From: Clostridiales bacterium
GTDB lineage: Bacteria > Bacillota > Clostridia > Christensenellales > Borkfalkiaceae
NCBI GenBank assembly: GCA_022508245.1
Contig: JAFLVO010000006.1
Coordinates: 847 to 64,846 of the forward strand
DNA: 64,000 bases
Direction of reading: 5' to 3'
The notes under the pieces were generated by a model, which worked only from the letters and a program-made list of their open reading frames with translations, was not told the origin of the DNA and did no database searches. The translations under genes and the position numbers were made by a program. Shown here one piece after another: positions 2,020-54,890 of this stretch (position 1 is its first letter; each line of letters begins with the position of its first letter).

Positions 2020-2190
2020 CTTCTTGGTTGCCGCTTCCTCTGAACGGCGCAATAGTTCGTCAAACTCCGCTTTTTTCGGGTCATTTACCGTTAAGTAAAC
2101 TCCCCGTCAAAAATGCTCGTTTTCCTGCTCTTGCTTGTTCACAGAAAGCGTTTAAAAGCCTTGTGTTAGAAATTGCTTGTTTCTAATCCA
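2020..2190 (+). repeat. Rep-B intergenic palindromic repeat, copy R1 (boundaries approximate)
   Basis: cgcaatagttcg...ccgcttttttcgggtcatttac-cgttaa-gtaaactccccgtcaaaaatgc...cttgcttgtt aligns with the copies at 3287, 32750, 46275, 49235, 50947 and 54655. Confidence 0.8.
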
Positions 2191-2252
2191 AGGGAGTAAA
2201 TCAAACGTTAAATCAAGGAAAAAATAATAATTTTCATATATAAGGAGTATCT

Positions 2253-3284
2253 ATGAAGAAGATTGTAACCATGGGCGAGATAATGCTCCGCCTTTCAACC
2301 CCCAACAACGAAAAATTCATTCAGGCTGACGAGTTTGATATCAACTATGGCGGCGGAGAGGCAAACGTTGCCGTATCCTGCGCCAACTACGGACACAAGG
2401 CGGAATTCGTAACTGCAGTTCCTGATAACGAAATCGGCGAGTGCGCAGTTGCGGCGCTCAGAAAGTACGGCGTTGAGACCGACCATATTGCAAAGTGCGG
2501 AGAAAGACTTGGTATTTACTATCTTGAGACGGGTTCTTCGGTAAGACCTTCAAAAGTCGTTTACGACAGAGCTCATTCATCGATTTCAACTGCTACCGCT
2601 AAAGATTTCGATTTCGACGCAATCTTCGAGGGCGCAGACTGGTTCCACTTCACGGGCATTACTCCCGCAGTATCCGACAGTGCGGCTGTCCTTACCGAAG
2701 AAGCCTTAAAGGCAGCTAAAAAGCACGGCGTAACTGTTTCCGTTGACCTCAATTTCCGTAAAAAACTGTGGTCGAGCGAAAAGGCTAAAAAGGTTATGAC
2801 CAGCCTCATGAAGTACGTTGACATATGTATCGGCAACGAAGAGGACGCAGACCTCGTTCTCGGCTACAAGCCCGGCAAGACGGACGTTACGAGCGGAGAT
2901 TTGGAGCTTGCAGGCTACAAGGATATATTTGAGAGAATGTGCAAAGACTTGGGCTTTAAGTATGCGATTTCTTCACTCCGCGTAAGCCACTCGGCATCCG
3001 ATAACGGCTGGTCGGCTTGCATCTACAAAGCTGAAACAAAGGAATTCTATCATTCAAAATCCTATTCTCTTCATCCCATCGTTGACCGCGTAGGCGGCGG
3101 CGACAGCTTCGCGGGCGGTGTAATCTGCGGCTTCCTCGACGGAAAAGATTTCAAATCCGCTCTCGAGTTCGGCGTTGCGGCATCCGCATTGAAGCACACA
3201 ATTCCCGGCGACTTCAACTTAGTATCCCGTAAAGAAGTAGAGGCTCTTGCGGGTGGCGACGGCTCGGGCAGAGTACAGAGATAA
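2253..3284 (+). CDS. kdgK: 2-dehydro-3-deoxygluconokinase (PfkB family)
   Basis: PfkB sugar-kinase pattern (GEIMLRL N-terminus, GGGEANVAV, C-terminal GGGDSFAGG). RBS aaggag. Sits between eda and kduI. Confidence 0.9.
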   Translation: MKKIVTMGEIMLRLSTPNNEKFIQADEFDINYGGGEANVAVSCANYGHKAEFVTAVPDNEIGECAVAALRKYGVETDHIAKCGERLGIYYLETGSSVRPSKVVYDRAHSSISTATAKDFDFDAIFEGADWFHFTGITPAVSDSAAVLTEEALKAAKKHGVTVSVDLNFRKKLWSSEKAKKVMTSLMKYVDICIGNEEDADLVLGYKPGKTDVTSGDLELAGYKDIFERMCKDLGFKYAISSLRVSHSASDNGWSACIYKAETKEFYHSKSYSLHPIVDRVGGGDSFAGGVICGFLDGKDFKSALEFGVAASALKHTIPGDFNLVSRKEVEALAGGDGSGRVQR

Positions 3285-3286
3285 AT

Positions 3287-3415
3287 TACTTCTCTGCCAC
3301 TTCCTCTAAGCATCGCAATACTGTGTCGTGCTGTGGCAACCCTCAGTCATTTACATCAAAGTAAACTCCTTCGGGTTTTCCTCGCACTCCTTGTCTTGCT
3401 CGCTTATAGAAAGTG
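3287..3415 (+). repeat. Rep-B intergenic palindromic repeat, copy R2
   Basis: catcgcaatactgtgtcgtgctgtggcaaccctcagtcatttac-atcaaa-gtaaactccttcgggttttcctcgcactccttgtcttgctcg. Closest to copy R6. Confidence 0.85.
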
Positions 3416-3449
3416 TGTAATTACAAGAATAAAGAATAAGGTGGGAATA

Positions 3450-4295
3450 ATGAAAGTAGCTTTCAGAACTCACGATTTGGGCGTAAAGGGTTTACAGCCC
3501 GCAATAGATAAATGTAAAGCCTCGGGAATTTCCGCCGTTCAGCTCGTTGCGTACAAATTTCTTGAAGAAATAAAGTATGCTCCGAACGCATTGAACGACG
3601 AAAATTCCAAAGTTATCGGCGCCGCGCTAAAGGAGGCGGGGATAGACGTGCCCTTAATCGGCGCGTACTTCAATCCCGTTCACTCCGACAAGCAAAAGGT
3701 AGCAAATTGCAAGCAGATATTCAAAGATTATCTTAAATACAGCAAAAATCTGGGTTGCAATATTGTCGGCTCGGAGACTGGCAGCTTTAACGACGACAAG
3801 TGGACCTACAACCCCTTGAACCGTACTCCCGAGGCGCTTGACACCGTAATAGAAACCTTTTCCGAGCTTGCGGACTATGCAAAGAGCGTAGGGGCAAACG
3901 TCGGAATGGAGGGCGCCGCGGGTCACGTTTGCTACAACGTTGCAACCTTAAACAAGGCGATAAAGGCAATCGGAGCGGACAATATTAAGGTAATTTTCGA
4001 TATCTACAACTATCTCGATGCTTCCAATTATAAAAACTATCTTGAAATTTTCGACGAGGGCTTAAAGACCTTCGACGGAAATATCCTCCTTTTCCACATA
4101 AAGGACTGCGTGTTCGAAGAGGGGAAATTAAAACAGGTCGCACCCGGCAATGGCATGTTCGACTTCGATAAAATTCTCAAAAAAATCAAGTCGTACGACA
4201 AAAACGCATACCTCGTGCTCGAGGGCACGACGGGCGCGGACATAGAACCCTGTATGCAGTTCATTCAAAATAAATGGGAGGACATAAAACTATGA
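3450..4295 (+). CDS. sugar phosphate isomerase/epimerase (xylose-isomerase-like TIM barrel)
   Basis: Start moved to ATG 3450 ([11 protein letters not shown]), preceded by aaggtggg. The upstream part of ORF 3333.. is Rep-B read-through. AP_endonuc_2-like pattern ([22 protein letters not shown]). Confidence 0.75.
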
Positions 4296-5161
4296 AATTT
4301 GACGTAAGGTATTCAAATCATCCCGACGATTCCAAGCATTACGACACAAAGGAACTGAGGGAAAAATATCTCATTGAAAAACTTTTTGAAGACGACGAAA
4401 TTCTTTTGACCTATTCTCATCAGGACAGAATTATCGCGGGCGGCGTAAAGCCCGTTAAAAAGTCTTTATCGCTCGGCACCTTCAAGGAGCTTGCTACCGC
4501 TTACTTCCTTGAAAGAAGAGAGCTTGGTATGATAAATATCGGCGGCGCGGGCGTAGTAACTTTGGACGGCAAAAAATACGAAATAGGCCATAAAGAGGGC
4601 TTGTACGTAGGTATGGGAACAAAAGAAGTGGAATTTTCTTCCAAAGACCCCCAATGCCCCGCTAAATTCTACGTGAACTCCAGCCCTGCGCACAAGAGCT
4701 ATCCCACGGTTAAAATAGTTAAACCCGTGGAGGGAGTGCCCGCACCCGAGGGCACGAGATACTGTGTTCAAAGGCACCTCGGCACCGAGGCCGGCATGAA
4801 CAAGCGCACAATCAACCAGTTTATTATCGGCGACGTGTGCGAGAGCTGTCAGCTTGCCATGGGCATGACCGAGCTTGCAGAGGGCAGCGGTTGGAACACC
4901 CTTCCCAGCCACACGCACGAGAGAAGAATGGAAGTATATATGTACTTCGAAGTTCCCGAAGAGGAGGCGGTTATCCACCTTATGGGCAAACCCGACGAAA
5001 CCCGCCACATAATCATGCACAACGAGCAGGCGGTCATTTCGCCCAGCTGGTCGATTCATACGGGCATAGGTACGCACAACTACACCTTCATCTGGGGTAT
5101 GTGCGGCGAAAATCAAGCCTACGACGATATGGACAATATCAAAACCAAGGACTTAAAATAA
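4292..5161 (+). CDS. kduI: 5-dehydro-4-deoxy-D-glucuronate isomerase
   Basis: [32 protein letters not shown] is a KduI-type N-terminus with a cupin core. The ATG overlaps the upstream stop (ATGA). RBS gggagg. Confidence 0.88.
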
Positions 5162-5303
5162 TTTAAATTGTGCATTTGCTACGCAATTGCTTGCAACTTC
5201 CCAATTTATAAATAATGACAATGATAGGGGGGTACGGATATTAAATTCCAACCGCACCCGTTGAAAAATACAAGAAAAAATAATAAACGAGGTAAAAATT
5301 AAA

Positions 5304-6434: not shown

Positions 6435-6458
6435 TTATAATAGATGCCGATACTTTAC

Positions 6459-6487
6459 GGCGGGCGACGCTGCTAATGTCGCCCGCC
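6459..6487 (+). promoter_or_regulatory. intercistronic GC-rich stem-loop (no U-tract)
   Basis: ggcgggcgac (6459-6468) / gtcgcccgcc (6478-6487), with a 9-nt loop. Lies between the ATPase gene and uxaB. Confidence 0.45.
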
Positions 6488-6515
6488 TAAATGATTAAAG
6501 ACAGGAGATTAAACA

Positions 6516-10853: not shown

Positions 10854-10919
10854 GTTAAGACTAAAAACAACTATCTTCCCCTAAAAATTATGGGAAGATA
10901 TGTTAATAAAGAGAAAAAT

Positions 10920-12029: not shown

Positions 12030-12044
12030 AAAGCTTTAAGTATA

Positions 12045-12080: not shown

Positions 12081-12100
12081 CATTTTTATATAATTATACA

Positions 12101-32053: not shown

Positions 32054-32743
32054 ATGAAATTGGCTAAAAAATATGCAGAGAGCGTAAAGTTATACGACCG
32101 CTCCAAAACCTACGAACTTAACGATGCCATTAAGACCGTTTTAGATACGGCAAAGGCTAAATTCGACGAAACAATCGAGCTTCACGTTCGCTTGGGCGTA
32201 GACCCCCGTCAGGCAGACCAGCAGGTCCGTGGCGTTTTAGTCCTTCCCAACGGTACGGGTAAAACCAAGAGAGTTCTCGTTATCGCAAAGGGCGACAAGG
32301 CGGACGCGGCAGAGGCTGCAGGCGCAGATTACGTCGGCGCAGAAGAGACCATTCAGCGCATCCAGAAGGACAACTGGTTCGACTTCGACGTTATGATTAC
32401 CACTCCCGATATGATGGGTATGGTAGGTAGAATAGGTAGAATCCTCGGACCCAAGGGCTTGATGCCCAACCCCAAGTCGGGCACAGTTACCATGGACGTA
32501 GCGAAGGCCGTCAAGGAAGTTAAGGCAGGTAAAGTTGAATACCGTCTTGACAAAACGGCAATTATCCACGTTCCCATCGGCAAGAAGTCCTTCGGCGTTG
32601 ATAAGATTGCAGAAAACTTCAACGCACTTATGGACGCAATCGTAAAGGCTAAACCCGCAGCCGCAAAGGGACAGTACATTAAGTCAGTTACGCTTTGCGC
32701 AACTATGGGTCCCGGTGTGAAGGTTACCTACAACAAAGGCTAA
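32054..32743 (+). CDS. rplA: 50S ribosomal protein L1
   Basis: [24 protein letters not shown]. Confidence 0.97.
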
Positions 32744-32749
32744 ATGTTA

Positions 32750-32930
32750 AAACGCATATAAACTGCGCAATACTTCGTTGTCTTTGCGTTTTTGCTTCGG
32801 TCATTTACTTCATTGTAAACTCCCTCGCAAAATCCGCAGACGCCTCGTCTTGCTTGTTTCTCTACGTTTTAGACGTGTGGAGAGAGTGTTGCTCGTTTCT
32901 CTGCGTTTTTGAAATTGTGCACTTAAAATC
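32750..32930 (+). repeat. Rep-B intergenic palindromic repeat, copy R3, with 2 right-arm sub-repeats
   Basis: gcgcaatacttcgttg...gcgtttttgcttcggtcatttac-ttcatt-gtaaactccctcgcaaaatccgc...cgtcttgcttgtttctctacgttttagac / gttgctcgtttctctgcgttttt. Confidence 0.8.
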
Positions 32931-32932
32931 GG

Positions 32933-32961: not shown

Positions 32962-32967
32962 TCAATC

Positions 32968-33110
32968 GTAAATAAATTTTGCTACCCAAGACGGCGGGTG
33001 CGTTTTCGCTCAATATCCCACCCAGGTGCCAGGTTTGAATTTAGTAATTTAAAATAATTATGTAAATTCCTTGTGCCTTTTTGGGTGCAAGGAATTCTTA
33101 ATTTTATAAG
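32968..33110 (+). ncRNA. candidate L10 (rplJ) leader / attenuator
   Basis: Contains cccaagacggcgggtg, reminiscent of Firmicute L10 leaders. Has a 13-bp attenuator hairpin aattccttgtgcc/ggtgcaaggaatt (33065-33096), followed by cttaatttt just upstream of the rplJ RBS. Not verified against Rfam. Confidence 0.5.
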
Positions 33111-38623: not shown

Positions 38624-40678
38624 TTAGGATTTTGAATCGGCAATTACCTTTTCGGCAATTTGAGGGGGAACTTCCTCGTAGCGCAGGAACTCGGTAGAGA
38701 ACTTGCCCTGTCCGCGCGTCATGCCTCTTAAGTCGGTAGCGTACTTGGCAATTTCGGAGAGGGGAACTTCGGCAATAACCGTGGTTATATCTCCGTCGGT
38801 CACGCTCTCGTTAATTCTGCCTCTGCGCTTGGAGATATCTCCCATAACCGCGCCGAGGTACTCGCCGTTTACTGCAGTCTTTAATTTCATAACGGGTTCC
38901 AAAAGTATGGGCTTTGCGTTTTTAATTCCCTCTTTGAATGCGAGCGCCGCTGCCGCCTTGAACGCCATTTCCGAGGAGTCTACGTCGTGATAGCTTCCGT
39001 CGTAAAGCACTGCTCTAACGCCTATTACGGGATAGTCGGCAAGAACTCCGCGCGAAAGACATTCTCTGAGTCCCTTTTCGACTGCGGGTATATACTGCTT
39101 GGGAACTGCGCCGCCTACAACCTCGTCGCCGAATTCGAAATCTGCCTCGCAAGGCTCGAAGCGCACCTTGCAGTGTCCGTACTGGCCGTGTCCGCCCGAC
39201 TGTTTCTTGTGTTTGCCCTCGGCGGTTGCCGTTGCGCGAATAGTCTCGCGGTAGGGGATTTTAGGCTCTGATAAGGTTACTTCCGTGCCGTAGCGCTGTT
39301 TGAGCTTTTTGGAGAGCATTTCCAAATGAATTTCGCCCTGACCGCTTATAATAAGCTCGCCCGTCTCGGCTCTCTTTTCAACCGAGAAGGTGTAGTCCTC
39401 CTCGCGCATCTTGTTAAAGCCTGCAAATATCTTGTCCTCGTCGCCCTTGTTCACGGCATTAACCGCAAGCGAAAGGCAGGGGCGGGGGAAGCGGATAGGG
39501 TCGAAGCGGATATTTGTTCCGAGTGCGCAGAGCGTGTGGTTGGTGTCTGTCGAAGTGAGCTTGTTCACGCCGCCGATATCGCCCGCCGAAAGCTCGGTTA
39601 CAAGCTCGGTCTTTTTGCCCTTAATCATAAATATCTGACCTATTCTCTCTTCAACCCCCGTGTTGGAGTTGAGTACGGTCATACCCGTTTTAAGCTTGCC
39701 GCGGTAAACTTTAATATAGTTTAGCTTGCCCGCAAAGGGGTCGTACACCGTCTTGAAAACCTGCGCGGCGAAGGGCGCTTCATCGTCGCATGAAACGCTT
39801 ACAAGCTCGTCGGCGTCAATGTCGGTGGCAAGGCTGTTGATTCTCTCGTTTGCGGTGGGCATATATCTTACGATTTCATCCAAAAGGTTTATAACACCGC
39901 GGTTCTGAAGCGCGCTGCCCGCCATTACCGGAATAACGCTTCCCGTAGCGATACCGCGCCTTATGCCGTGCACGGCTTCTTCCTTCGTCAGCTTGCCCTC
40001 TTCGAAATACTTGTCAAGGAGTCGGTCGTCATTCTCCGCCGCAGTCTCCATAAGCCGGAACTGCATTGCGTTCATTTGCTCGACATACTCCTTCGGTACG
40101 GGAATTTCCTGCGGTCCCTGCGTAGAGAATTTATACGCCCTTTCCTGAATGGCGTTGACGTAACCCGTCATCTTTTCGCCGTCAATCATGGGAATCTGTA
40201 TGGGCGCAAGCTTGCCCGCATACTTTTCTTCGAGTGCGGCAAGCGTTCCCGCATAGTCTGCGTTGGCTTTGTCCATGCCGTTTATAAATATAACGAGCGG
40301 TTTCTGAAGTTTCAAACAGTAATCGACTACGCTCTCCGCGCCGATGGGCAGAACGCCGTTCGCACCGAGTACGAGTATAGCCGCACCGCATGCGGAAAGC
40401 CCTTCGTGTCTCTCGCCCTCGAAATCGTAGAAGCCGGGAAGGTCTAAAAGGTTTATCTTTATTCCCTTCCAGGTAAGATATGCAACGGAGGTATACACCG
40501 AAATTTTCTTACTCTTTTCAAGGTCGTCAAAGTCCATAACGGTGGTTCCGTCCTCGACCTTGCCCATTCTGTCGGTTACACCGCCGTTGTATAGCATAGC
40601 CTCGCAAAGGGTGGTCTTGCCTTCGCCGCTGTGTCCAATGACTGCAATGTTTCTTATTTCTTTTGCTGTAATACTCAT
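38624..40678 (-). CDS. EF-G paralog (EF-G2-like translational GTPase, 684 aa)
   Basis: Start moved to ATG 40678 (MSITAKEIRNIAVIGHSGEGKTT). G3 is DLPGFYDF and G4 is NGMD. EF-G domains II-V are recognisable. The 85 codons upstream in the ORF track are AT-rich promoter region. Confidence 0.85.
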   Translation of the reverse strand: MSITAKEIRNIAVIGHSGEGKTTLCEAMLYNGGVTDRMGKVEDGTTVMDFDDLEKSKKISVYTSVAYLTWKGIKINLLDLPGFYDFEGERHEGLSACGAAILVLGANGVLPIGAESVVDYCLKLQKPLVIFINGMDKANADYAGTLAALEEKYAGKLAPIQIPMIDGEKMTGYVNAIQERAYKFSTQGPQEIPVPKEYVEQMNAMQFRLMETAAENDDRLLDKYFEEGKLTKEEAVHGIRRGIATGSVIPVMAGSALQNRGVINLLDEIVRYMPTANERINSLATDIDADELVSVSCDDEAPFAAQVFKTVYDPFAGKLNYIKVYRGKLKTGMTVLNSNTGVEERIGQIFMIKGKKTELVTELSAGDIGGVNKLTSTDTNHTLCALGTNIRFDPIRFPRPCLSLAVNAVNKGDEDKIFAGFNKMREEDYTFSVEKRAETGELIISGQGEIHLEMLSKKLKQRYGTEVTLSEPKIPYRETIRATATAEGKHKKQSGGHGQYGHCKVRFEPCEADFEFGDEVVGGAVPKQYIPAVEKGLRECLSRGVLADYPVIGVRAVLYDGSYHDVDSSEMAFKAAAALAFKEGIKNAKPILLEPVMKLKTAVNGEYLGAVMGDISKRRGRINESVTDGDITTVIAEVPLSEIAKYATDLRGMTRGQGKFSTEFLRYEEVPPQIAEKVIADSKS

Positions 40679-40862
40679 AAAATGCCCCTTATCCCGCCTT
40701 AGCGGCGGTTCATTATACCTATTATAATATATATAATCAATTATTTCAAGGGGGTAATAAAAAATAATGCCCGCCAAATGGGCTAAGAATAAGGCAATTT
40801 GCGGTCGACTTATATAATATTCAAAAATTATAAAAAAATGCCAAATAATTAGTCGTTTTCGT

Positions 40863-40891
40863 TTGACAATTCCTATTGACATCTTTATAAT
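40863..40891 (+). promoter_or_regulatory. consensus sigma-A promoter ~300 nt upstream of rpsJ
   Basis: TTGACA (40863-40868), 17 nt, TATAAT (40886-40891). Confidence 0.65.
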
Positions 40892-40897
40892 GAATAA

Positions 40898-41195
40898 GCA
40901 CGCGTGAGAGTGTGTGCTTGGGTAGATGCGCAAAGTTACTGAAATTTTACGGTAAAAATCCGCCGTAACAGATAATTTGTGCGGACAAATGTGAGGGCAG
41001 GACCCTTGCGACTAACCGCGATTCGTTTAAACGAAACGACTAACTCGTTAGTTCGTTTGAAAAACGAAGTGACTAACTCGTTTTTCGCTTAAAAACGCCT
41101 ATGCGCTGTTTGGCGCATAGTAAAAAAACGAAGCGCGACACACACGGATAAGTTGACGCGAATAAAAAAGTTAGTATAAATTAAGGAGTTACAAA
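40898..41195 (+). ncRNA. long hairpin-rich 5' leader of the S10 operon (candidate cis-regulatory RNA)
   Basis: Successive hairpins: aagcac/gtgctt (40896-40919), ttacgg/ccgtaa (40947-40968), atttgt/acaaat (40975-40990), three GACTAAC-hairpin units, and ctatgcgc/gcgcatag (41099-41120). Confidence 0.45.
41008..41097 (+). repeat. three tandem ~28-33-nt units, each GACTAAC plus a 7-bp A/T-rich hairpin
   Basis: GACTAAC at 41010, 41038 and 41071. Hairpins ttcgttt/aaacgaa (41022-41035), ttcgttt gaa aaacgaa (41052-41068) and cgttttt cgctt aaaaacg (41079-41097). Confidence 0.8.
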
Positions 41196-44286: not shown

Positions 44287-44299
44287 GGAGTAGTGTACT

Positions 44300-44689: not shown

Positions 44690-44700
44690 GGAGAGAGAAT

Positions 44701-45996: not shown

Positions 45997-46008
45997 GGAG
46001 TGCTAAAT

Positions 46009-46266
46009 ATGGAAAGAACATCTTTAAGGAAAGAAAGAGTGGGCATAGTCGTATCCAGCAAGATGGACAAGACGGTAGTCGTTGCAGTCAGAGATAACCG
46101 CAAGCACCCCCTCTATAAAAAGACCATTTTAAGAACGACCCGCTTCAAGGCGCACGACGAGAACAACGAGTGCGGCGAGGGCGATAAGGTCAGAATAGTG
46201 GAAACGCGCAAGCTTTCAAAGGACAAGAACTGGCGCGTTGCCGAAATTATCGAAAAGGCAAAGTAA
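46009..46266 (+). CDS. rpsQ: 30S ribosomal protein S17
   Basis: ATG 46009 ([25 protein letters not shown]), preceded by aaggag. Confidence 0.95.
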
Positions 46267-46274
46267 AATTCATA

Positions 46275-46420
46275 TATACATCGTTATGCTTTGTTGCACT
46301 CCGCGCCGCCTTGGTAAGCCGTTTCCCAAAAGGGAACCCTCGGCTTCGGTACGACATTTACCTCAATGTAAACTCCCTGCGGTCGGTGCTCGTGCGCCTC
46401 GCCTAACTCGTATCTATGAA
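46275..46420 (+). repeat. Rep-B intergenic palindromic repeat, copy R4 (with the 35-nt nested hairpin module)
   Basis: gttgcactccgcgccgccttgg-[taagccgtttcccaaaagggaaccctcggcttcgg]-tacgacatttac-ctcaat-gtaaactccctgcggtcggtgctcgtgcgcctcg. Confidence 0.85.
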
Positions 46421-46579
46421 TTTTAGACAGACTCCCGCGATTGCGGGAGAGCAAGATATAATAAAATAATGTATGATTGTCATTCACAGGCAAAGGAGAG
46501 TGGGGCGCTCAACTTCACTTATGTGTCTGTAAGATAATCCTCTGCACACAGTTGTAAGTTCAAAAATAGGAGAGTTTTT

Positions 46580-46948
46580 ATGATACAACCTCAAACAAGA
46601 CTTAAAGCCGCAGACAACAGCGGCGCAAAGGAACTTATGTGCATAAAGGTACTCGGTGGTTCGTTCAGAAAGACGGCGAACATCGGTGACGTAATCGTCT
46701 GCTCGGTTAAAACGGCAACCCCCGGCGGCGCCGTTAAAAAGGGCGAAGTAGTAAAGGCGGTTATCGTGCGCAGTTCCAAGGGCATCAGACGCGACGACGG
46801 TACTTATATCCGTTTCGACGACAATGCCGCAGTTATAATCAACACCAACAAAGAACCTCGCGGTACGCGTATTTTCGGACCGATTGCAAGGGAGCTTCGT
46901 GAGAAGAACTATATGAAGATTATCTCGCTCGCTCCCGAAGTGCTGTAA
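46580..46948 (+). CDS. rplN: 50S ribosomal protein L14
   Basis: [27 protein letters not shown]. Confidence 0.98.
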
Positions 46949-46964
46949 TTAAAGGAGAAATGCT

Positions 46965-47390
46965 ATGAACGTAAAATTAAATGACAACGTTTTAGTTATC
47001 ACAGGTAAGTATGCGGGCAAGCAGGGCAAGGTAGTTGCCACCTCTCCCAAAAACGGCACGGTTACGGTCGAGGGCGTGAATATTCACAAGAAGGCGAAGA
47101 AGGCAAGAAAGGCTAACGAAGTTTCCGAAATCGTCGAAGTCGCCGCCCCCCTGGACGTATCCAACGTAATGGTAGTTTGCGACGCGTGCGGCAAAGCAAT
47201 AAGAGTTAAGTATTCCGTAGAAGGCGGCAAAAAGCACAGAGTGTGCGGCAAGTGCGGCGCGGTGCTCGACAAGGCATACGCAGGCAAGAAGGCTGCTGCC
47301 AAGAAGGAAGAAGCTCCCAAGAAGCGTGTAAGAAAACGCGCAAAGAAAGACGAAGAAACCCCCGAAACGACGGGCGGCGACGCTGAATAA
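46965..47390 (+). CDS. rplX: 50S ribosomal protein L24 with a CxxC...CxxC ribbon and a K/A/E-rich C-terminal tail
   Basis: KOW motif [10 protein letters not shown]. Cys72/75/94/97 (CDACGK...CGKCG). 141 aa against the usual ~105. Confidence 0.95.
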
Positions 47391-47401
47391 GGAGGTGCGA
47401 G

Positions 47402-48052
47402 TTGGCTACTAAAAAGACAGCGGCTGAAAACGCCGAAGTAAAAGAAGAAACCACAAAGAAAGCAGCTGCACCCAAGACCGCCAAAAAGGCGTCTGCGGCT
47501 GAAAAGAAATACGTTTCAAGAGTTCAGGAACAGTACGAAAAGGAAGTTGTTCCCGCACTCACCGCTAAATTCGGCTATAAAAACGTTATGCAGGTTCCCA
47601 AGCTTGTTAAAATCGTAGTAAGCTCGGGACTCGGCGATATCAAGGACAACGCGAAATCAATACAGATGGCTCAAAGCGAAATGAAGCTCATTACGGGACA
47701 GCAGCCCGTAACCTGCAAGGCAAAGAAGTCGGTTGCAAACTTCAAGGTTCGTGAAGGTATGGTTATCGGATTAAAGGTAACACTCCGCGGCAAGATGATG
47801 TACGATTTCTTCGATAAGTTCATTTCGATTGCACTTCCCCGCGTGCGCGACTTCCGCGGCGTATCCGCAGAGAGCTTCGACGGCAAGGGCAACTACTGCA
47901 CGGGCGTAAAGGAACAGCTTATGTTCCCCGAAATTCAATACGATCAGGTAGAGAAGATAAGGGGTATGGACATCTGTTTCGTAACCACGGCAAAGAGCGA
48001 TGAAGAAGCGAGAGAGCTTTTGAGGGCAATGGGTATGCCCTTCAAGAAGTAA
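47402..48052 (+). CDS. rplE: 50S ribosomal protein L5 with a ~36-aa K/A-rich N-terminal extension (TTG start)
   Basis: The core starts at [33 protein letters not shown] aaggaggt lies 6 nt before TTG 47402. Confidence 0.9.
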
Positions 48053-48061
48053 GGAGTTTTT

Positions 48062-48247
48062 ATGGCAAAGAAATCAATGATAAATAAACAGCAGAGACCT
48101 GCTAAATACTCGACGAGAGCATACACAAGATGCTCCATTTGCGGAAGACCTCACGCGGTTTTGCGCAAGTACGGAGTATGCCGTATATGTTTCAGAAACC
48201 TCGCTTACAAGGGACAGATTCCCGGCGTGAAGAAATCGAGTTGGTAA
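48062..48247 (+). CDS. rpsN: 30S ribosomal protein S14 type Z (zinc-binding, 61 aa)
   Basis: [21 protein letters not shown]. Confidence 0.97.
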
Positions 48248-48262
48248 GAGGAGGAGCGAAAA

Positions 48263-48655
48263 ATGACAGACCCTATTGCAGATATGCTCACACGCGTAAG
48301 AAACGCGCTTGCAGCTAACAAAGAAAAGGTTGAGATTCCCTCATCCAATATGAAAAAGGCGATTGCGAATATTATGCTCGACGAGGGCTATATTTCCGAC
48401 GTTAAATTCGAAGAAGACGGCTATAACGGCAAAATCGTTATATCCCTCAAATACGCAGGCAAGAAAAAGCCCGTTATAAACGGACTTAAGAGAGTTTCCC
48501 GTCCCGGACTTCGCGTCTATTCGGACGTAGACACTATGCCCAAGGTTATGGACGGACTCGGCATTGCTATTCTTTCCACCAACAAAGGCATTATGACGGG
48601 CAAGCAGGCAAAAGCGCAGAACGTAGGCGGCGAAGTGCTGTGCTACATCTGGTAA
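48263..48655 (+). CDS. rpsH: 30S ribosomal protein S8
   Basis: [15 protein letters not shown]. Confidence 0.98.
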
Positions 48656-48669
48656 GGAGGTAATTAAAT

Positions 48670-49218
48670 ATGTCAAGAATAGGAAAATTACCCGTAGCTT
48701 TACCCGCAGGCGTGACCGTTACCTTTGAAAACGGACTTTTGACCGTAAAGGGCGGCAAGGGCACGCTTACACAGACGATTGTCGGCGACATCAATATCAA
48801 AGTAGAGGGTACGGAGGCTATCGTTGAAAAGACGGCTCAAACCCCCGACGCAAACGCTAAACACGGACTTTACCGCGCGCTTCTTCACAACATGGTTGTC
48901 GGCGTTACCGAAGGCTACAAGAAGACGCTCAAAGTTAACGGCGTCGGCTGGAAGGTCGCAAAACAGGGCAACAAGATAGTCCTTAACGTAGGCTATTCGC
49001 ACCCCGTAGATTTCGTTGAACCGCAGGGTATCAAGCTTGAATGCCCCACCGCAAACGAAATTACCGTATCCGGCATAGACAAAATTCTTGTCGGACAGAC
49101 GGCAGCTGATATCAGAAACATCAGAATTCCCGAACCTTACCACGGTTACGGCATCGCGTACAGCGACGAAGTAATCGAGAGGAAGGAAGGTAAGACGGGA
49201 GGCAAAGGCAAGAAGTAA
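48670..49218 (+). CDS. rplF: 50S ribosomal protein L6
   Basis: MSRIGKLPVALPAGVTV. Confidence 0.98.
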   Translation: MSRIGKLPVALPAGVTVTFENGLLTVKGGKGTLTQTIVGDINIKVEGTEAIVEKTAQTPDANAKHGLYRALLHNMVVGVTEGYKKTLKVNGVGWKVAKQGNKIVLNVGYSHPVDFVEPQGIKLECPTANEITVSGIDKILVGQTAADIRNIRIPEPYHGYGIAYSDEVIERKEGKTGGKGKK

Positions 49219-49234
49219 TTTCGGATTATCATTC

Positions 49235-49335
49235 ATCACGCAATACTTTGTTGCACTCTGCGCCGCCTTGGTCACGTACATCTGTGTACGCTCCCTGCGG
49301 TCGGTACTCGTGCGCCTCGTCTTGCGCGCGACTGA
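49235..49335 (+). repeat. Rep-B intergenic palindromic repeat, copy R5 (cgtac/gtacg hairpin variant)
   Basis: cacgcaatactttgttgcactctgcgccgccttggtcacgtac-atctgt-gtacgctccctgcggtcggtactcgtgcgcctcgtcttgcgcg. Confidence 0.85.
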
Positions 49336-49384
49336 TAACCCGAAGGATTAACCCAAGTTGGTTAACTTGTCCATAGGAGATATT

Positions 49385-49753
49385 ATGATTACTAAAATTG
49401 ATAAGAACAAGGAACGTTTAAGAAGACATCTGCGCGTCCGCAAAAAGGTAAGCGGCACGGCAGAGGCGCCCAGACTCAGCGTTTACAGGTCTCTTAACCA
49501 TATTTACGCGCAAGTTATCGACGACACGAAGGGCGTAACACTTTGCTCGGCTTCTACAATGGAAAAGGACGTTAAGAGCAAGGTAGAAGGTCTCAGCAAG
49601 ACTGACGCAGCCAAGGTCGTCGGAAAGTGCGTTGCGGAAAAGGCAACTAAACTCGGTATAAAGCAGGTCGTGTTCGACAGAGGCGGCTACCTCTACACGG
49701 GACGCGTTCAGGCATTGGCAGACGGCGCAAGAGAAGCCGGACTTGATTTCTAA
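49385..49753 (+). CDS. rplR: 50S ribosomal protein L18
   Basis: ATG 49385 ([25 protein letters not shown]), preceded by aggaga. Confidence 0.95.
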
Positions 49754-49763
49754 GGAGTTTGAT

Positions 49764-50297
49764 ATGGAAGAAAAGAAAGAAAGACCTGCAAGAAGAGATA
49801 ACAGAAGAAGGCAGGAAGACGACGGCTTAATCAAAAAACTTATACAGGTAAACAGGGTATCAAAGACCGTTAAAGGCGGTAGGAATATGCGCTTTGCTGC
49901 TCTCGTTGTCGTCGGCGACGGCAAGGGCAACGTAGGCTACGGCATGGCAAAGAGCAAGGAAGTTCCCGAAGCTATCGAGAAAGCTAACGCTCAGGCTAAA
50001 AAGAATATGAAGAAGGTGGCGCTTGCCGGCACTTCTATTCCCCACTCCGTACTCGGCATTTTCGGCAGAGGCTCGGTGCTTATGATGCCTGCCTCCGAAG
50101 GTACCGGCGTTATCGCGGGCGGACCCGTGCGTGCGGTTATGGAAGCAGCGGGCGTAAAGGACGTAAGAACCAAGTCCCACGGCACTTCCAACCCTATTAA
50201 CTGTGTAAAGGCTGCAGTCTGCGGACTCTACGAGCTTAAATCGCCCGAAGAGGTTGCGGCGGCTCGCGGCAAGAGTGTGGACGAACTCAAAGCATAA
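49764..50297 (+). CDS. rpsE: 30S ribosomal protein S5
   Basis: ATG 49764, preceded by aaggag. [25 protein letters not shown]. Confidence 0.95.
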
Positions 50298-50309
50298 TGG
50301 AGAATTGAA

Positions 50310-50483
50310 ATGGTTAAAGTTACTTTAATTAGAAGCACAAACGGACAGATTAAGTCTGTAAAGGACACAATCGCCGCTTTGGGGCTTAAAAAAATCCGTC
50401 AATCAAAGACTTTGGAGGAAACTCCCGCAAATTTGGGGCAGATTAAAAAGGTTGCCCATCTTGTGCTTGTCGAAAAGGTTTAA
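50310..50483 (+). CDS. rpmD: 50S ribosomal protein L30 (57 aa)
   Basis: Not in the ORF track. MVKVTLIRSTNGQIKSVKDTIAALGLKKIRQSKTLEETPANLGQIKKVAHLVLVEKV. Confidence 0.93.
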   Translation: MVKVTLIRSTNGQIKSVKDTIAALGLKKIRQSKTLEETPANLGQIKKVAHLVLVEKV

Positions 50484-50492
50484 GGTGAATTT

Positions 50493-50942
50493 ATGAGAAT
50501 AGATACTTTATCGCCCGCAGAGGGCGCAAGACACAGCGTTAAAAGACTCGGCAGAGGTATAGGCTCGGGACTCGGCAAGACTTCCGGTAAGGGTCACAAG
50601 GGTCAGTGGGCGCGTTCGGGCGGCGGCGTTCGTCCCGGCTTCGAAGGCGGTCAGATGCCTCTTGCAAGACGTATTCCCAAACGCGGTTTCCATAACAAAT
50701 GGGCTACGCACTACACTATTGTTAATCTCAGCCAGCTTGCAAACGAAAAGGCAGGCACGGTAATTGACTTCGAATACGTTGCAAGCCACAACCTTGCAAA
50801 GGAAGTTAAGGACTCGGCAGGGCTCAAAGTGCTCGGCACGGGCAAATTAGAGGTTGCTCTCACTGTAAAAGCCGCAAAATTCTCGGCAAGCGCAAAAGAG
50901 GCTATCGAGAAAGCGGGCGGCACCTGCGAAGTAATCAGCTAA
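50493..50942 (+). CDS. rplO: 50S ribosomal protein L15
   Basis: [19 protein letters not shown]. Confidence 0.97.
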
Positions 50943-50946
50943 TATA

Positions 50947-51080
50947 CACGCAATACTGCGTTGTGCTGTGGCAACTCTCGGTAAGCCGTTTCCCTAAAGG
51001 GAACCCTCGGCTTCGGTGCGACGTTTACTTCATTGTAAACTCCCTCGGGTTTTCCTCGCACGCCTTATCTTGCTCGTATC
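50947..51080 (+). repeat. Rep-B intergenic palindromic repeat, copy R6 (with the nested hairpin module)
   Basis: cacgcaatactgcgttgtgctgtggcaactctcgg-[taagccgtttccctaaagggaaccctcggcttcgg]-tgcgacgtttac-ttcatt-gtaaactccctcgggttttcctcgcacgccttatcttgctcg. Confidence 0.88.
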
Positions 51081-51127
51081 TTAACTGATTACAGCTAAAG
51101 GTTAAATCCCTTTAAAAGAGGTTTAAA

Positions 51128-52525
51128 ATGTTTGAAACAATTAAAAACTGTTTTAAAGTCAAAGAAATAAGGAAGAAGATTTTCTTAACACTTATCCTGC
51201 TTCTTATTTTCAGACTCGGCTGTTATATTCCCGTCCCCGGTATCAAGGTATCGGAATTCAGGAGCGTAATCAACGACCCCAATAACGCGTTTTTGGGCGT
51301 TCTCTCGTCCATAACGGGCGGTTCGCTGGCAAATGCAACGCTGTTTGCACTCGGCATAAGCCCGTATATTAACGCGTCGATTATTATCCAGCTTTTAACG
51401 GTTGGTATTCCCGCCCTTGAAAGGATGTCAAAGGAAGGCGAAGACGGCAGAAAGAAAATAGCGCAGATAACGCGTTTTGTGACTATTGCCCTTGCAATTG
51501 CACAGGCAATCGGTATCATCATCAACTTCGGCGTAAACAACAACGCACTCAGACTTGAGTTCTTTGGCTATTTTTCACAGAATACAGCGCTCTCGGTGGT
51601 TTCCGAAACGGGAGCTAAGGTTATGGCGGGTATATTCCTTACCGTGGTATATACTGCAGGCGCGATGCTTGTTATGTGGCTCGGCGAAAGAATTACCGAA
51701 TACGGCGTATCCAACGGTATATCGCTCATAATCTTCGTTGGTATTATCTCTACCGCGGGTCTTACCATCGTCGAAAGATTTACCGAAGCGTTCGGTTGGG
51801 GCAGTTATGTAGATAAGGCAAACCCCGCAGTACTTTGGGAGGTTCTCGGCTTTGTGGTCCTGACGGTTGTGGAATTTGCCGCAATCGTAACGGTTGACTT
51901 GTCAGAGAGAAGAATTCCGGTTCAGTACGCAAAGCAGGTAAAGGGCAGAAAGATGTACGGCGGTCAGTCGTCTGTAATACCCATCAAGATTTCGGGTTCG
52001 GGCGTCATGCCTTTAATCTTCGCGTTCGCTCTCATATCCTTCCCGCAGCTCTTAATAAGCCTGTTCTGGCCCAATACGGACGCTGCAACCAACATCAATA
52101 TCTGGTTCTCGGGCTCATCCCCTAAATGGTACGGTCAGCTCATATATATGGTAACGCTTTGCCTGCTTATATTTGCTTTCTCGTTCTTCTATCAGTCGAT
52201 GCAGTTCAATCCCGAGGACGTTTCCAAGACAATTCAGCAGAACGGCGGCTTTATTCAGGGTATAAGACCCGGCAAGCCCACGTCCGACCATCTTAAAAAG
52301 ATTTCCAACAGAATTACGCTCTTCGGTGCGATTTATCTTTCGCTCGTAGCGTTTATTCCCTCGATACTCTCAATAGTGCTTGCAAGCCTCGGTCAGAGCA
52401 ATCTTACCCTCTTGTCGGTATTCTCTACGACGGGTATCCTCATCGTCGTATCCGTTGCAATGGAGCTTGACAAACAGCTCGAATCGCAACTTATGATGAA
52501 GACGTATAAGGGCTTCCTCAAATAA
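51128..52525 (+). CDS. secY: preprotein translocase subunit SecY
   Basis: 10-TM SecY pattern (GISPYINASIIIQLL, ITEYGVSNGISLIIF). Confidence 0.97.
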   Translation: MFETIKNCFKVKEIRKKIFLTLILLLIFRLGCYIPVPGIKVSEFRSVINDPNNAFLGVLSSITGGSLANATLFALGISPYINASIIIQLLTVGIPALERMSKEGEDGRKKIAQITRFVTIALAIAQAIGIIINFGVNNNALRLEFFGYFSQNTALSVVSETGAKVMAGIFLTVVYTAGAMLVMWLGERITEYGVSNGISLIIFVGIISTAGLTIVERFTEAFGWGSYVDKANPAVLWEVLGFVVLTVVEFAAIVTVDLSERRIPVQYAKQVKGRKMYGGQSSVIPIKISGSGVMPLIFAFALISFPQLLISLFWPNTDAATNINIWFSGSSPKWYGQLIYMVTLCLLIFAFSFFYQSMQFNPEDVSKTIQQNGGFIQGIRPGKPTSDHLKKISNRITLFGAIYLSLVAFIPSILSIVLASLGQSNLTLLSVFSTTGILIVVSVAMELDKQLESQLMMKTYKGFLK

Positions 52526-52544
52526 AAAGTATAGGGAAATATAA

Positions 52545-53171
52545 GTGAACATAATTCTTTTGGGCGCACCCGGCGCAGGCAAGGGCACGCAGGCAAGCAA
52601 AATAGCGCAAAAATACAACATCCTGCATATCTCCACGGGCGATATTTTCCGTGCCAACATAAAGGGCGGAACCAGGATAGGCAAGCTTGCAAAATCCTAT
52701 ATCGACGCGGGCAAGCTCGTTCCCGACGAAGTCACTTGCGACATAGTTGAGGACAGATTGCAAAATGACGATATAAAAGGCGGATATATGCTTGACGGCT
52801 TCCCCCGCAACATCTTTCAGGCGGAGAGGCTGGATAAATTTGCGCACATAGACCTCTGTCTCAACATAGAAGTTGACGAAAAGCTTTTAATGGACAGAAT
52901 TTGCGGAAGAAGAGTGTGCGCCTGCGGACAGAGCTATCATATCTCTACGTTAAACGGCGCAACTACCTGTGCAAAGTGCGGTGGCACGCTCTATCAGCGC
53001 GCAGACGACAATCCCGAGACGGTCAAGGCAAGGCTTGACACCTATAACAGTCAAACCGCGCCCCTCATCGGGTATTACAAGGCGCAGGGCAAGCTTAAAT
53101 GCGTAACAAGCGGCGATGGCAGTCCCGACGAAGTGTTCGCGCAGATTGAGGAAATTTTAGACAAACAATGA
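52545..53171 (+). CDS. adk: adenylate kinase (GTG start)
   Basis: MNIILLGAPGAGKGTQ. Cys-containing lid (CACGQSYH...CAKCGG). Confidence 0.95.
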   Translation: MNIILLGAPGAGKGTQASKIAQKYNILHISTGDIFRANIKGGTRIGKLAKSYIDAGKLVPDEVTCDIVEDRLQNDDIKGGYMLDGFPRNIFQAERLDKFAHIDLCLNIEVDEKLLMDRICGRRVCACGQSYHISTLNGATTCAKCGGTLYQRADDNPETVKARLDTYNSQTAPLIGYYKAQGKLKCVTSGDGSPDEVFAQIEEILDKQ

Positions 53172-53914
53172 TTACGGTAAAGACCCCCAAAGAAATTGAG
53201 TTCATGCGTGAAAGCTGCCGCATAGTCAAGGAAACGCTTGACTTTGTGGGAAGCAGAATACACGCGGGGATGACCACCAAGGAAGTGGACGAGCTCGTCT
53301 ACAAGTATATTATCTCCTGCGGCGCCTATCCCTCCGAACTCGGTTACGAGGGCTATCCCGCAAGCTCGTGCGTATCCGTAAACGAGGTTGTGGTACACGG
53401 AATCCCCGGCGACAGAGTTATTTTGGACGGCGATATCGTCAGCGTGGATATAACGGCTGAAAAGAACGGTTTCCACGGCGACGCGGCAAGAACCTTTCTT
53501 ATCGGCGAGGTGTCAGAGGATAGGAAAAAGCTTGTAAAAGTTACCGAAGAGTGCTTTTTCAAGGCAATCGAGGGATTGCGGGCAGGCTCGCACCTCTACG
53601 ACATAGGTCACGCCGTTCAGACGCATGCGGAAGGCCACGGCTACGGAGTTGTCCGTGCGCTCACGGGTCACGGAATAGGCAGAAGTATGCACGAGGACCC
53701 AGGCGTTCCCAACTACGGCAAGAGGGGTACGGGTATGCGGCTTAAAGCGGGTATGACTATCTGCATAGAGCCGATGATTACCCTCGGCACGTACAGAGTC
53801 TTTATGGATAATAACGACGGCTGGACGGTTACGACTGCCGACGGCAAATGTGCGGCGCACTACGAAAACACCGTACTTATCACAGAGGACGGCGTTGAAA
53901 TATTAACTCTGTAA
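53168..53914 (+). CDS. map: type I methionine aminopeptidase
   Basis: VVHGIP, DIVSVD, GHGIGRSMHE, TICIEP. Confidence 0.96.
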   Translation: MITVKTPKEIEFMRESCRIVKETLDFVGSRIHAGMTTKEVDELVYKYIISCGAYPSELGYEGYPASSCVSVNEVVVHGIPGDRVILDGDIVSVDITAEKNGFHGDAARTFLIGEVSEDRKKLVKVTEECFFKAIEGLRAGSHLYDIGHAVQTHAEGHGYGVVRALTGHGIGRSMHEDPGVPNYGKRGTGMRLKAGMTICIEPMITLGTYRVFMDNNDGWTVTTADGKCAAHYENTVLITEDGVEILTL

Positions 53915-53944
53915 GTTGAAATATTAACTCTTTAAGGGAAATAT

Positions 53945-54235
53945 ATGAAAAACAAAACTCCCGTTTTGGGGGGCGTCTGCAAGAGCACACAGGGCAGAGA
54001 TAAGGACAAGTACTATTTAATCTTTTCGATTGACGGCGAATCTGTCCTTGTTGTGGACGGAAAGTATAAAAAGACTTCCGCACCTAAGCGCAAAAATTTA
54101 AAACATCTGTACCTGCTTCCCGAAAAAAATGAAGAAATTGCGGAAAAGCTTTCAAAAGGGGTTAAAGTTTACGACGCGGAGATAATTTCCGCACTCAAAA
54201 GGTTCAATATTAAATCCGCGGACGCGGAAAAATAA
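53945..54235 (+). CDS. KOW-domain small protein between map and infA
   Basis: [19 protein letters not shown]...[10 protein letters not shown] Clostridia-typical position. Confidence 0.7.
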
Positions 54236-54245
54236 AAGGAGTTCT

Positions 54246-54467
54246 ATGTCTAAAGACGACGTAATTGAAACAGAGGGCAAGGTTATAGAGTGCCTTCCCA
54301 ATGCAACGTTCAAGGTTAAACTTACCAACGGTCACGTTATAACGGCGTACATTTCGGGCAAGCTTCGCCTCAACTATATAAGAATTATAGAGGGCGACAA
54401 CGTTAAGCTTGAAATAAGCCCGTACGATCTTACCAAGGGCAGAATTACCTGGCGCAGCAAGAACTGA
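54246..54467 (+). CDS. infA: translation initiation factor IF-1
   Basis: [41 protein letters not shown]. Confidence 0.97.
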
Positions 54468-54533
54468 TTACGAAATAATTAGTCACAAGCAAATTCCGGC
54501 GCATAAAGCGCGTAAAGAAATTAGGAGAAAGTT

Positions 54534-54650
54534 ATGAAAGTAAGACCTTCTGTAAAACCCATGTGCGACAAATGCAAGGTTATCAAAAGAAACGGCAAAG
54601 TTATGGTGATTTGTTCTAAAAACAAGTCCCACAAGCAACGCCAGGGCTAA
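54534..54650 (+). CDS. rpmJ: 50S ribosomal protein L36 (zinc-binding, 38 aa)
   Basis: Not in the ORF track. [38 protein letters not shown]. Confidence 0.95.
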
Positions 54651-54654
54651 AACG

Positions 54655-54890
54655 CGTATCTACGGCGCACTGCTTTGTCGCGCTCCGCTTTTCTCGGGTC
54701 ACGTACGTCTTTGTACGCTCCCCTTGAAAATGCTCGCGCTCCTAGCATTGCTTGTATCTCCGCATTTTAAACGGTTTAGACTTGCGGGTGTGAGTGTGCC
54801 GCTTGCTTCTCTGTGTTTTAAACTTGCGTAAGTGAGTGCATTGCTTGTATCTTCGCGTTTTAACGCGGTTTTAACTTGCGATTTTTTAAA
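54655..54890 (+). repeat. Rep-B intergenic palindromic repeat, copy R7, plus three tandem right-arm sub-repeats
   Basis: ggcgcactgctttgtcgcgctccgcttttctcgggtcacgtac-gtcttt-gtacgctccccttgaaaatgctcg. Then units at 54745-54795, 54796-54837 and 54838-54880 (gcattgcttgtatct..cg.ttttaa..cttgcg..gtgagt). Confidence 0.85.

Follow-up and report, generated by a model that had tools for sequence, protein, structure and literature searches.

Rep-B, an apparently undescribed palindromic repeat located behind stop codons, may be a mobile DNA element

Introduction

Repetitive extragenic palindromic (REP) sequences are abundant, their spread and function are poorly understood, and families of REPs or of miniature inverted-repeat transposable elements (MITEs) are usually lineage-specific. 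Here we analyse Rep-B, a palindromic intergenic repeat found in a stretch of 64,000 nucleotides from a Clostridiales bacterium (contig JAFLVO010000006.1, positions 847 to 64,846; hereafter referred to as the window). The window holds seven full copies of Rep-B and one remnant, which we read, at about even confidence, as non-autonomous palindromic DNA elements related in kind to REP, REPIN and ERIC sequences. Published REPs are located less than 20 nt from the end of the upstream open reading frame (ORF), with a varying distance to the downstream one, and in some cases provide the stop codon themselves (PMC3733652). Ribosome stalling is reported for REPs that lie less than 16 nt from a stop codon (PMC12306157, citing Liang et al. 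2015).

Rep-B shares several properties with REP, BIME and REPIN sequences, which carry GTAG or CGTC tags and are mobilised by RAYT (TnpA-REP) proteins. It is likewise extragenic, multi-copy, hairpin-forming and clustered, lies mostly between genes of the same direction or between convergent genes, at a short distance behind the upstream ORF, and in roughly half of the copies has a CGTC-like tetranucleotide before its box 2 (see below). The stop-proximal position, which can affect translation in the case of REPs, is also shared. It differs from REPs in its length (116-160 nt compared to 20-40 nt), in forming a single long interrupted hairpin whose arms are not self-folding instead of a head-to-head REP dimer, and in having its tetranucleotide inside the hairpin, whereas the GTAG/CGTC tag of REPs is at the unpaired end. 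Moreover, Rep-B is most conserved at the apex and not at the base, its motifs are shared across phyla, its flank is duplicated in inverted orientation, and it has no match in E. coli genomes; neither a RAYT gene in the window nor a recurrent neighbour family in the listed loci of 8-12 kb was found.

ERIC (IRU), Correia, bcr1, RUP and BOX elements resemble Rep-B in being imperfect palindromes of approximately 100-150 bp that are co-transcribed, non-coding and polymorphic with respect to insertion. With ERIC (127-bp consensus) the likeness ends at the sequence level, as blastn revealed no similarity of Rep-B to ERIC-bearing E. coli genomes. Further differences from ERIC and MITEs are the missing direct target-site duplication, the inverted duplicate of the 5' flank, the strong orientation bias and the cross-phylum occurrence; a classical MITE consists of terminal inverted repeats flanked by a direct target duplication of fixed length, an arrangement not seen in Rep-B. 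The first, sequence-only reading of the window had recognised no named family in the repeat. This holds with respect to Rfam 15, ERIC and REP, whereas Rep-B is presumably also distinct from the consensus sequences of Correia, bcr1, RUP and BOX.

Like integron attC sites, Rep-B is an imperfect palindrome of similar size that follows the stop codon of a co-oriented ORF and in which the bottom strand appears to be the meaningful fold. Unlike them, it lacks the core sites R'' (RYYYAAC) and R' (GTTRRRY), its apex is conserved, and its hosts are ribosomal-protein and sugar-catabolism operons, with no cassette array and with no integrase domain in the window. Finally, IS1397, ISKpn1 and group IIC introns prefer hairpins or terminators behind genes and have a fixed orientation, and some copies of Rep-B are similarly located at the 3' foot of a terminator. 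Rep-B differs in being non-coding and approximately 116 nt long, and a hairpin target is not required, given that empty SecY/adk sites (see below) contain no hairpin.

Results

A covariance model was built from the seven window copies and run over both strands of the whole window with filters switched off. It returned exactly the seven copies that had been noticed before (R1 to R7), all on the plus strand and co-oriented with transcription, with scores of 99-121 bits, while the next match reached only 19 bits. The hits span positions 2034-2150, 3300-3415, 32752-32869, 46268-46423, 49225-49341, 50936-51089 and 54652-54767, respectively. A second model based on 110 family members detected the same seven copies and the same weak match, now at 17.3 bits. 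The seven segments are mutually alignable, and RNAalifold predicts for them a single long hairpin with interruptions that comprises 26 pairs; 19 of these have compensatory changes within the set of seven copies alone. This agrees with the earlier proposal that the two arms pair imperfectly. The other proposed parts of the architecture are all present, namely a left arm with CGCAATACTnnGTTG, an apical 5-bp stem with a 6-nt loop, and a right arm with CCTYGTCTTGCTCG. Each of the seven copies is preceded by a stop codon, the upstream genes encoding KDPG aldolase, a PfkB kinase and the ribosomal proteins L1, S17, L6, L15 and L36. The hairpins are longer than initially delimited: copy-specific outer stems extend back to, or into, the stop codon.

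Further members of the family were collected by an exact scan for the apex pattern (GTCATTTAC-N6-GTAAACTCC) in one genome per GTDB species, which yielded at least 120 loci; approximately 170 model matches are present within the 120 loci listed. The locus-based counts given below (110 copies, neighbours, orientation) rest on the matches listed and refer to loci of 8-12 kb, not to whole genomes. A chance apex alone scores 18.6 bits, and matches above about 40 bits include the arms. In the alignment of 110 copies, 90.8% of the cells are standard pairs (61.7% in shuffles), and changes on both sides were found in 25 of the 26 modelled pairs. The covariation score was 0.69, compared to 0.18 in shuffles and at most 0.15 in slid registers; pairing is thus conserved well beyond the window.

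The conserved unit comprises approximately 116 nt and whole elements 116-160 nt. Two basal boxes, (T)ATAWRC / GYWTCT and GCAATAC / GTCTTGC, each contain a conserved U.C mismatch (AUAC/GUCU) and are accompanied by a conserved asymmetric internal loop in which GYGTTG is opposite GCCTTG. The middle stem occurs in a few interchangeable types. The apex is nearly invariant (GG[TCA]YKTAC-N6-GTAMR[CT]CC), and its 5-bp stem covaries between TTTAC/GTAAA, CGTAC/GTACG and CATAC/GTATG. A tetranucleotide CGTC, CTTC or CGGC precedes box 2 inside the hairpin, and is CGTC-like in roughly half of the copies. Element ends are of type B (TAAAACGC...GCGTTTTA), of type A (CTTCCTCTRA...TYAYAGAAAG) or copy-specific, and many type-B outer stems have A-run...T-run flanks.

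To locate the hairpin base, the stem was extended outward from box 2 in a zipper-like manner with mismatched flanks as control; this procedure replaced the outermost pair of the minimum free energy (MFE) structure, which turned out to be an unreliable boundary. In 72 of 81 copies (89%) the base is located no further than 15 nt past a stop codon or falls within the ORF itself, the latter being true of 19 of them. TAA accounts for 70 of 87 stop codons. Co-oriented ORFs end within 60 nt of the 5' side in 74-86 of the 110 copies (ORFs of at least 150 or at least 60 codons), while convergent ORFs end within 60 nt of the 3' side in only 4-23. Copies that do not follow a stop codon follow an intrinsic-terminator hairpin, and about one in ten is located downstream of a terminator. 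The genes preceding the copies are housekeeping genes that have no relation to one another, for example atpB, ruvX, glnB, lepA, tatA, secDF and a thiolase gene.

Orientation is informative only between genes of the same direction. In such contexts 61 non-redundant copies were co-oriented and four anti-oriented (p = 4e-14), which extends the bias noticed in the window to the family; in related ribosomal operons eight copies were co-oriented and two reversed. The initial view that all copies are inside operons reflects the gene content of this particular stretch. R5 and R6 are within the spc cluster. R3, R4 and R7, by contrast, are at the classical L11/L10, S10/spc and spc/alpha operon boundaries and not deep within operons, and beyond the window copies are also found between convergent genes and after terminators.

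Co-orientation with transcription had been taken as an argument for selection at the RNA level. The folding properties of the two strands do not agree with this. When folded as RNA, 107 of 110 copies are more stable on the antisense strand (mean MFE -42.5 kcal/mol compared to -33.5 kcal/mol for the sense strand), and with DNA parameters 109 of 110 are, including all 15 copies from outside the Clostridia. Relative to dinucleotide shuffles, z-scores of R2, R5 and R3 were -4.3, -4.0 and -2.9 for the sense strand and -7.3, -7.2 and -5.5 for the antisense strand. The sense MFE structure of R5 differs from the long hairpin, and the consensus fold energy is -20.4 for the sense and -33.3 for the antisense strand. 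When the sense strand is placed on the shared structure, 195 A.C and 60 G.U oppositions are counted. A single apex-closing pair, which covaries to A-U or G-C in six copies, contributes 104 of the A.C oppositions; when it is excluded, 91 A.C still compare to 60 G.U. Among unpaired sense positions, T accounts for 46%, C for 31%, G for 16% and A for 7%, which makes 77% pyrimidine. In structured RNAs G.U normally outnumbers A.C, which is the reverse of the pattern seen here. By analogy, either the constrained fold would belong to the antisense strand, as DNA or RNA, or the sense copy would have been selected to be weak. The step from co-orientation to a structure selected in the mRNA is not supported: the sense strand folds worse, is rich in A.C and is pyrimidine-rich where unpaired, and reversed copies in ribosomal operons also exist.

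The presence of the elements was compared in eighty metagenomic relatives of the L15 operon (57-86% L15 identity, 634 kb) and in the listed loci. Only ten copies are present in the eighty related operons, and the closest relatives have none at the sites of R4 to R7. The window and loci L136 and L139 have a short, empty SecY/adk spacer; in L149, L142 and L140 (plus strand) and in L133 (minus strand) this spacer is filled. Each of these fillings has a different outer stem, and they represent independent events. Copies have thus been gained and lost between close relatives, and the same spacer has been filled more than once. Among the matches listed, the genome locus nearest to the window is L069 (Clostridiales bacterium HAN108), which holds R1 and R2 at the same sites with one and about eight differences, respectively. 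At the 3' end of the PfkB-kinase gene, the window and L069 have an orthologous copy, whereas L014 has one of a different sub-family. Behind an orthologous gene ending in ...FGDACLFL-stop, outer arms and box 2 were retained while the middle stem was swapped among three types. In tandem arrays the gene-adjacent copy is usually the best preserved, and in some arrays the repeated unit includes the gene end along with the element. Near-identical copies occur at contig ends of JAZQII and JAZNSH metagenome-assembled genomes (MAGs). Gain and loss, near-identical copies at contig ends and mosaicism point to mobile-DNA behaviour.

The outer stems are copy-specific and yet complementary, with an extension score of 5.9 compared to 0.56 for mismatched flanks. 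Their left arm is host sequence, sometimes coding, and the right arm is its inverted copy. The left arm of R6, GTAATCAGCTAA, is the end of the L15 ORF and is also present in L133, which has no element at this site; the left arm in L140, TAATCGGCACA, compares with TAATCAGAACA at the empty site of L139. Copy-specific outer stems could also mean that elements insert into hairpins already present in the host, but this was rejected as a general rule since the empty SecY/adk sites have no hairpin. In relatives without the element (L131-L140), the spacer that separates the L15 stop codon from the ribosome-binding site of SecY contains a short, GC-rich hairpin whose sequence varies (GGCGCCGCGCGCGGCGCC in L139 is one example); in the window this place is taken by Rep-B.

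Most of the listed loci belong to MAGs of Clostridia (Ca. Coproplasma, Christensenellaceae/Christensenella, Ca. Stercoripulliclostridium, Ca. Gallimonas). Outside this class, full-length copies were found in Mucispirillum MAGs, Pseudohongiellaceae, Cryomorphaceae, Oligoflexales and one alphaproteobacterial MAG, in two Spongiibacter genomes, including that of isolate DSM 19753, and in the isolate Endozoicomonas ascidiicola. Apart from the apex, whose match is forced by the search, the distant copies have GYGTTG in the left arm and GCCTTG(Y)C in the right arm in common, and some of them also the outer arm CTTCCTCTGA. A scan of viral contigs for the pattern yielded nine loci. One is a true, full-length copy with 46 bits (L129, 3862-3967, an IMG/VR contig). 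The other eight match the 24-nt apex pattern only, with identical scores of 18.6 bits, and may represent one unrelated conserved viral sequence.

Other families have only the apex in common with Rep-B and differ in their arms. A distinct family, here called type C (L011, L026, L042, L105, L109, L120 and others), has in common only the apex GGTCATTTAC-N6-GTAAACTCCC, between arms of the form CCAAACCGAGGATAAGGGCGCATCTYGCGCCCTTT ... ATCTGCAACCCTTCTGCTCGGTTTGG. To judge from these sequences, the apex may be a module used by several families. A longer, near-identical variant (TCAGAGCACTGAC ... GTCAGCAGACTGA) occurs in JAZQII, JAZNSH and JAZULU MAGs (L007, L004, L053, L081, L107, L038, L060, L061, L094), where it follows at the 3' foot of terminator hairpins, in many cases at the end of a contig. 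L107 has a copy of the entire host terminator hairpin on either side of the element, and L053 has a duplicate of this hairpin in inverted orientation.

The individual copies of the window, all on the plus strand, differ mainly in their outer parts. R1 (2020-2196; core 2034-2150, 107.9 bits) is a full hairpin after the TAA stop codon (2017-2019) of the KDPG-aldolase gene; an additional, degenerate right-end module is enclosed by its outer stem, CTTCTTGG / CCAAGGGAG. R2 (3285-3422; core 3300-3415, 120.7 bits) starts at the base following the TAA stop codon (3282-3284) of the PfkB-kinase gene and has a type A outer arm (CTTCCTCTAAGC / GCTTATAGAAAG). R3 occupies 32747-32930 (105.2 bits), with the hairpin (32747-32871) after the L1 stop codon (32741-32743) and a tail containing a second right-end module, detected by pattern match at 32888-32909, just 5' of the L10 leader. 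An Rfam L10_leader (63.6 bits) is present at 32967-33108, directly 3' of R3 and its tail; R3 thus separates the L1 stop codon from the leader through which the L10 operon is autoregulated.

R4 (46264-46425, 113 bits), at the S10/spc boundary, has its hairpin base at the S17 stop codon (TAAAATTCATATATAC / GTATCTATGAATTTTA), where stem-extension analysis placed the start of the stem. A nested hairpin of 39 nt is inserted at 46316-46354. R5 (49220-49344, 106.5 bits) is located between the genes of L6 and L18, with the outer stem TTCGGATTATCA / TGATAACCCGAA and a covarying apex variant, CACGTAC-N6-GTACGCTCC. R6 (50931-51092, 98.7 bits), between the genes of L15 and SecY, has a left outer arm, GTAATCAGCTAATATAC, that includes the last three L15 codons and the stop codon, and a right outer arm, GTATCTTAACTGATTAC, that is the inverted copy of the left; the same nested 39-nt hairpin as in R4 is present at 50983-51021. 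R7 (54648-54890, 109 bits) is at the spc/alpha boundary and comprises a hairpin (54648-54769) starting from the L36 stop codon (TAAAACGCG / CGCATTTTA) and a tail with right-end modules at about 54796-54826 and 54840-54866, followed by small terminator-like hairpins (sites 54853-54880). The modules after R3 and R7 (CTTGCTYGTWTCTCYRCRTTTT) are additional copies of the element's own right end; the sub-repeats initially described at this position are therefore present after R3 and R7 and weaker after R1.

The weak eighth match (5168-5206, plus strand, 19 bits) starts 7 nt past the stop codon of ORF 4274-5161 and consists of a CGCAAT left box fused to a TGCTTGC right box. It probably represents an internally deleted copy, its sequence being that of a hairpin base without interior; a full copy follows the orthologue of this ORF in L065 (6932-7048).

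The 39-nt hairpin module (AAGCCGTTTCCCWAAAGGGAACCCTCGGCTTCGGTRCGA) is inserted at the identical point in R4 and R6 (GGT^CA, directly before the apex stem), although the two copies differ in their middle-stem sub-family. No other occurrence was found in the window or in the 130 loci searched. The module is either a site-specific nested mini-element or was passed from one copy to another by gene conversion. A gene of the EF-G family (38624-40933), immediately preceding the S10 operon, is on the minus strand, opposite to the usual str-operon arrangement; the ORF as called has a TTG start and an unusually long N-terminal extension.

Searches for described relatives gave no match. A scan of the whole window against Rfam 15 at gathering thresholds reported only the L10_leader, and with E-values up to 10 no family matched any copy in regions 46200-55000, 3270-3440 and 54600-55010. 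No match was obtained by blastn against plasmids and phages, or with a gammaproteobacterial copy (word size 11) against 5,426 complete E. coli genomes. A full-text literature search for the apex sequence retrieved only unrelated primers and shRNAs, and a keyword search retrieved REP papers without a description of the Rep-B family. Judged from Rfam 15, the sequence searches and the literature, the family appears to be undescribed. A resemblance to dif/Xer sites (ACTTCCT... and ATGTAAACT) is probably coincidental, as spacing and geometry do not fit. A small antisense ORF (GGAG...ATG at the apex) was rejected since the stems covary and reading frames are not conserved. In a scan for consensus terminators the elements were not called; only the small hairpins in the R7 tail were, and the total did not exceed that in shuffles.

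Discussion

The interpretation that we favour, held at even confidence, is that Rep-B copies are REP-, REPIN- or ERIC-like non-autonomous palindromic DNA elements whose apex serves as the handle of a putative trans-acting enzyme. The elements are found in the short untranslated spacer just past a stop codon, or past the terminator hairpin of the gene, usually in co-orientation. This rule of position is not exotic, because published REPs also lie near the ends of upstream ORFs. The palindrome extends outward, the right flank being an inverted copy of the gene-proximal left flank, with a base that abuts or includes the stop codon. Copies duplicate in tandem together with the gene end, swap middle stems, lose internal parts and decay. 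A structure-specific enzyme, encoded at another place in the genome, would recognise the element by its invariant apex; it is possibly an HUH/RAYT-like or other single-strand transposase or recombinase, acting on one folded DNA strand. This is most likely the strand complementary to the mRNA, because it is the well-formed one. The orientation bias may stem from strand-specific insertion or from the loss of copies that placed a strong hairpin in the transcript. Judging by what is known of palindrome mutagenesis, the inverted flank might arise from fold-back priming at insertion or from later quasi-palindrome template switching. The co-transcribed sense copy would form a weakened hairpin, rich in pyrimidines and no more than 15 nt away from the stop codon. 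As E. coli REPs suggest by analogy, it could influence ribosome stalling at the termination codon, 3'-end stability or polarity, as a side effect and not as the reason for conservation.

Several observations weigh against this interpretation. No transposase, RAYT or integrase domain is encoded among the 30 window proteins scanned, in agreement with the first reading as regards transposase and RAYT genes. All-against-all clustering of the 903 ORFs of the listed loci revealed housekeeping clusters only and no recurrent neighbour family. Nor does a transposase adjoin any copy in the 120 loci listed; two inverted copies in L108 enclose a lipoprotein-like ORF only. A direct target-site duplication was not found: a second occurrence of the 12-mer that ends with the stop codon is seen downstream of only two of 83 copies, both of which are tandem duplications of gene end plus element. 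The copies share no conserved junction motif and no defined termini. Transposition is therefore deduced from the distribution of copies. Better folding of the antisense strand points to the constrained strand only by analogy. Orientation to transcription and orientation to replication are not cleanly separable, as the local strand-majority test is weak and convergent contexts are uninformative. Lastly, cross-phylum conservation of apex and loops is unusual for REP or MITE families, and a host function fits it equally well.

The first such function would be that of a cis-acting RNA in the sense transcript, that is, an intercistronic or 3'-UTR (untranslated region) hairpin selected because it directs mRNA processing, protects the 3' end, decouples translation or stalls ribosomes at the stop codon, with multiplicity being secondary. 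We regard this explanation as unlikely, though not without weight. Strong co-orientation with the upstream gene would be expected from it, and the position of the hairpin base, no more than 15 nt away from the stop codon in 89% of copies, corresponds to the geometry reported for ribosome stalling by REPs. Furthermore, element-free relatives often have the small GC-rich hairpin between L15 and SecY, so a hairpin may be useful there, and the right arm, with 34% C and 19% G, has the C-rich, G-poor composition of a Rho-loading tract. However, the sense strand is the poorer folder in 107 of 110 copies, and the sense MFE structure of R5 is not the long hairpin. A.C is three times as frequent as G.U on the shared structure and only 7% of unpaired bases are A, opposite to structured RNAs. 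In addition, some copies follow intrinsic terminators, reversed copies are tolerated in ribosomal operons, and the closest relatives do without the element at all four ribosomal sites (R4-R7).

The superior fold of the other strand, with loops rich in A and G, would be accounted for if an antisense RNA hairpin acted as a terminator or insulator, often with a short U-run that overlaps the complement of TAA, and blocked convergent or spurious antisense transcription into the 3' end of the gene. Type-B copies starting with TAAAAC, and hence ending in GUUUUA at the gene end on the antisense strand, and the predominance of TAA (70 of 87) agree with this model. Nevertheless it is improbable: the A-run and T-run flanks are symmetrical, so that the sense strand has an equal U-run, a U-run is missing from type-A copies, the elements are not called in the terminator scan, and mobility, mosaics and arrays are left unexplained. 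Moreover, antisense promoters or transcripts are not known from the interior of ribosomal operons. A folded single-strand recombination site, attC-like and recognised on its bottom strand by a tyrosine recombinase, is highly improbable: position immediately 3' of co-oriented ORFs (the stop codon sometimes inside), a palindrome of ~60-160 nt with conserved mismatches and the better bottom-strand hairpin agree with it, but the termini are unlike RYYYAAC / GTTRRRY, the apex is conserved rather than variable, no integrase is present in the window or the listed loci, and excision would be lethal because the flanked genes are essential operon genes. The probability that remains is left to explanations we have not thought of.

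Irrespective of mechanism, Rep-B has practical consequences, as the elements break MAG assemblies at contig ends, inflate spacers in ribosomal operons and may be taken for cis-regulatory RNAs. The stop-codon-hugging position, the inverted duplication of gene ends and the difference in fold quality between strands provide handles for finding the enzyme and the active strand. The same apical hairpin of roughly 30 nt, together with two loop motifs, is found in Clostridia, Deferribacterota, Alpha- and Gammaproteobacteria, Bacteroidota and Bdellovibrionota, which argues for a conserved partner protein or for frequent horizontal spread. A bolder version of the favoured interpretation, which we consider rather improbable, is that a putative widespread single-strand-specific recombinase or transposase reads the apex (GGTCAYKTAC-N6-GTAMRCTCC) on the folded bottom strand and homes in behind stop codons, while fold-back synthesis copies the gene end. 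If this were true, Rep-B would represent a cross-phylum, attC-like tagging of gene ends outside integrons, and would bear on the question of how attC sites become attached to the 3' ends of genes.

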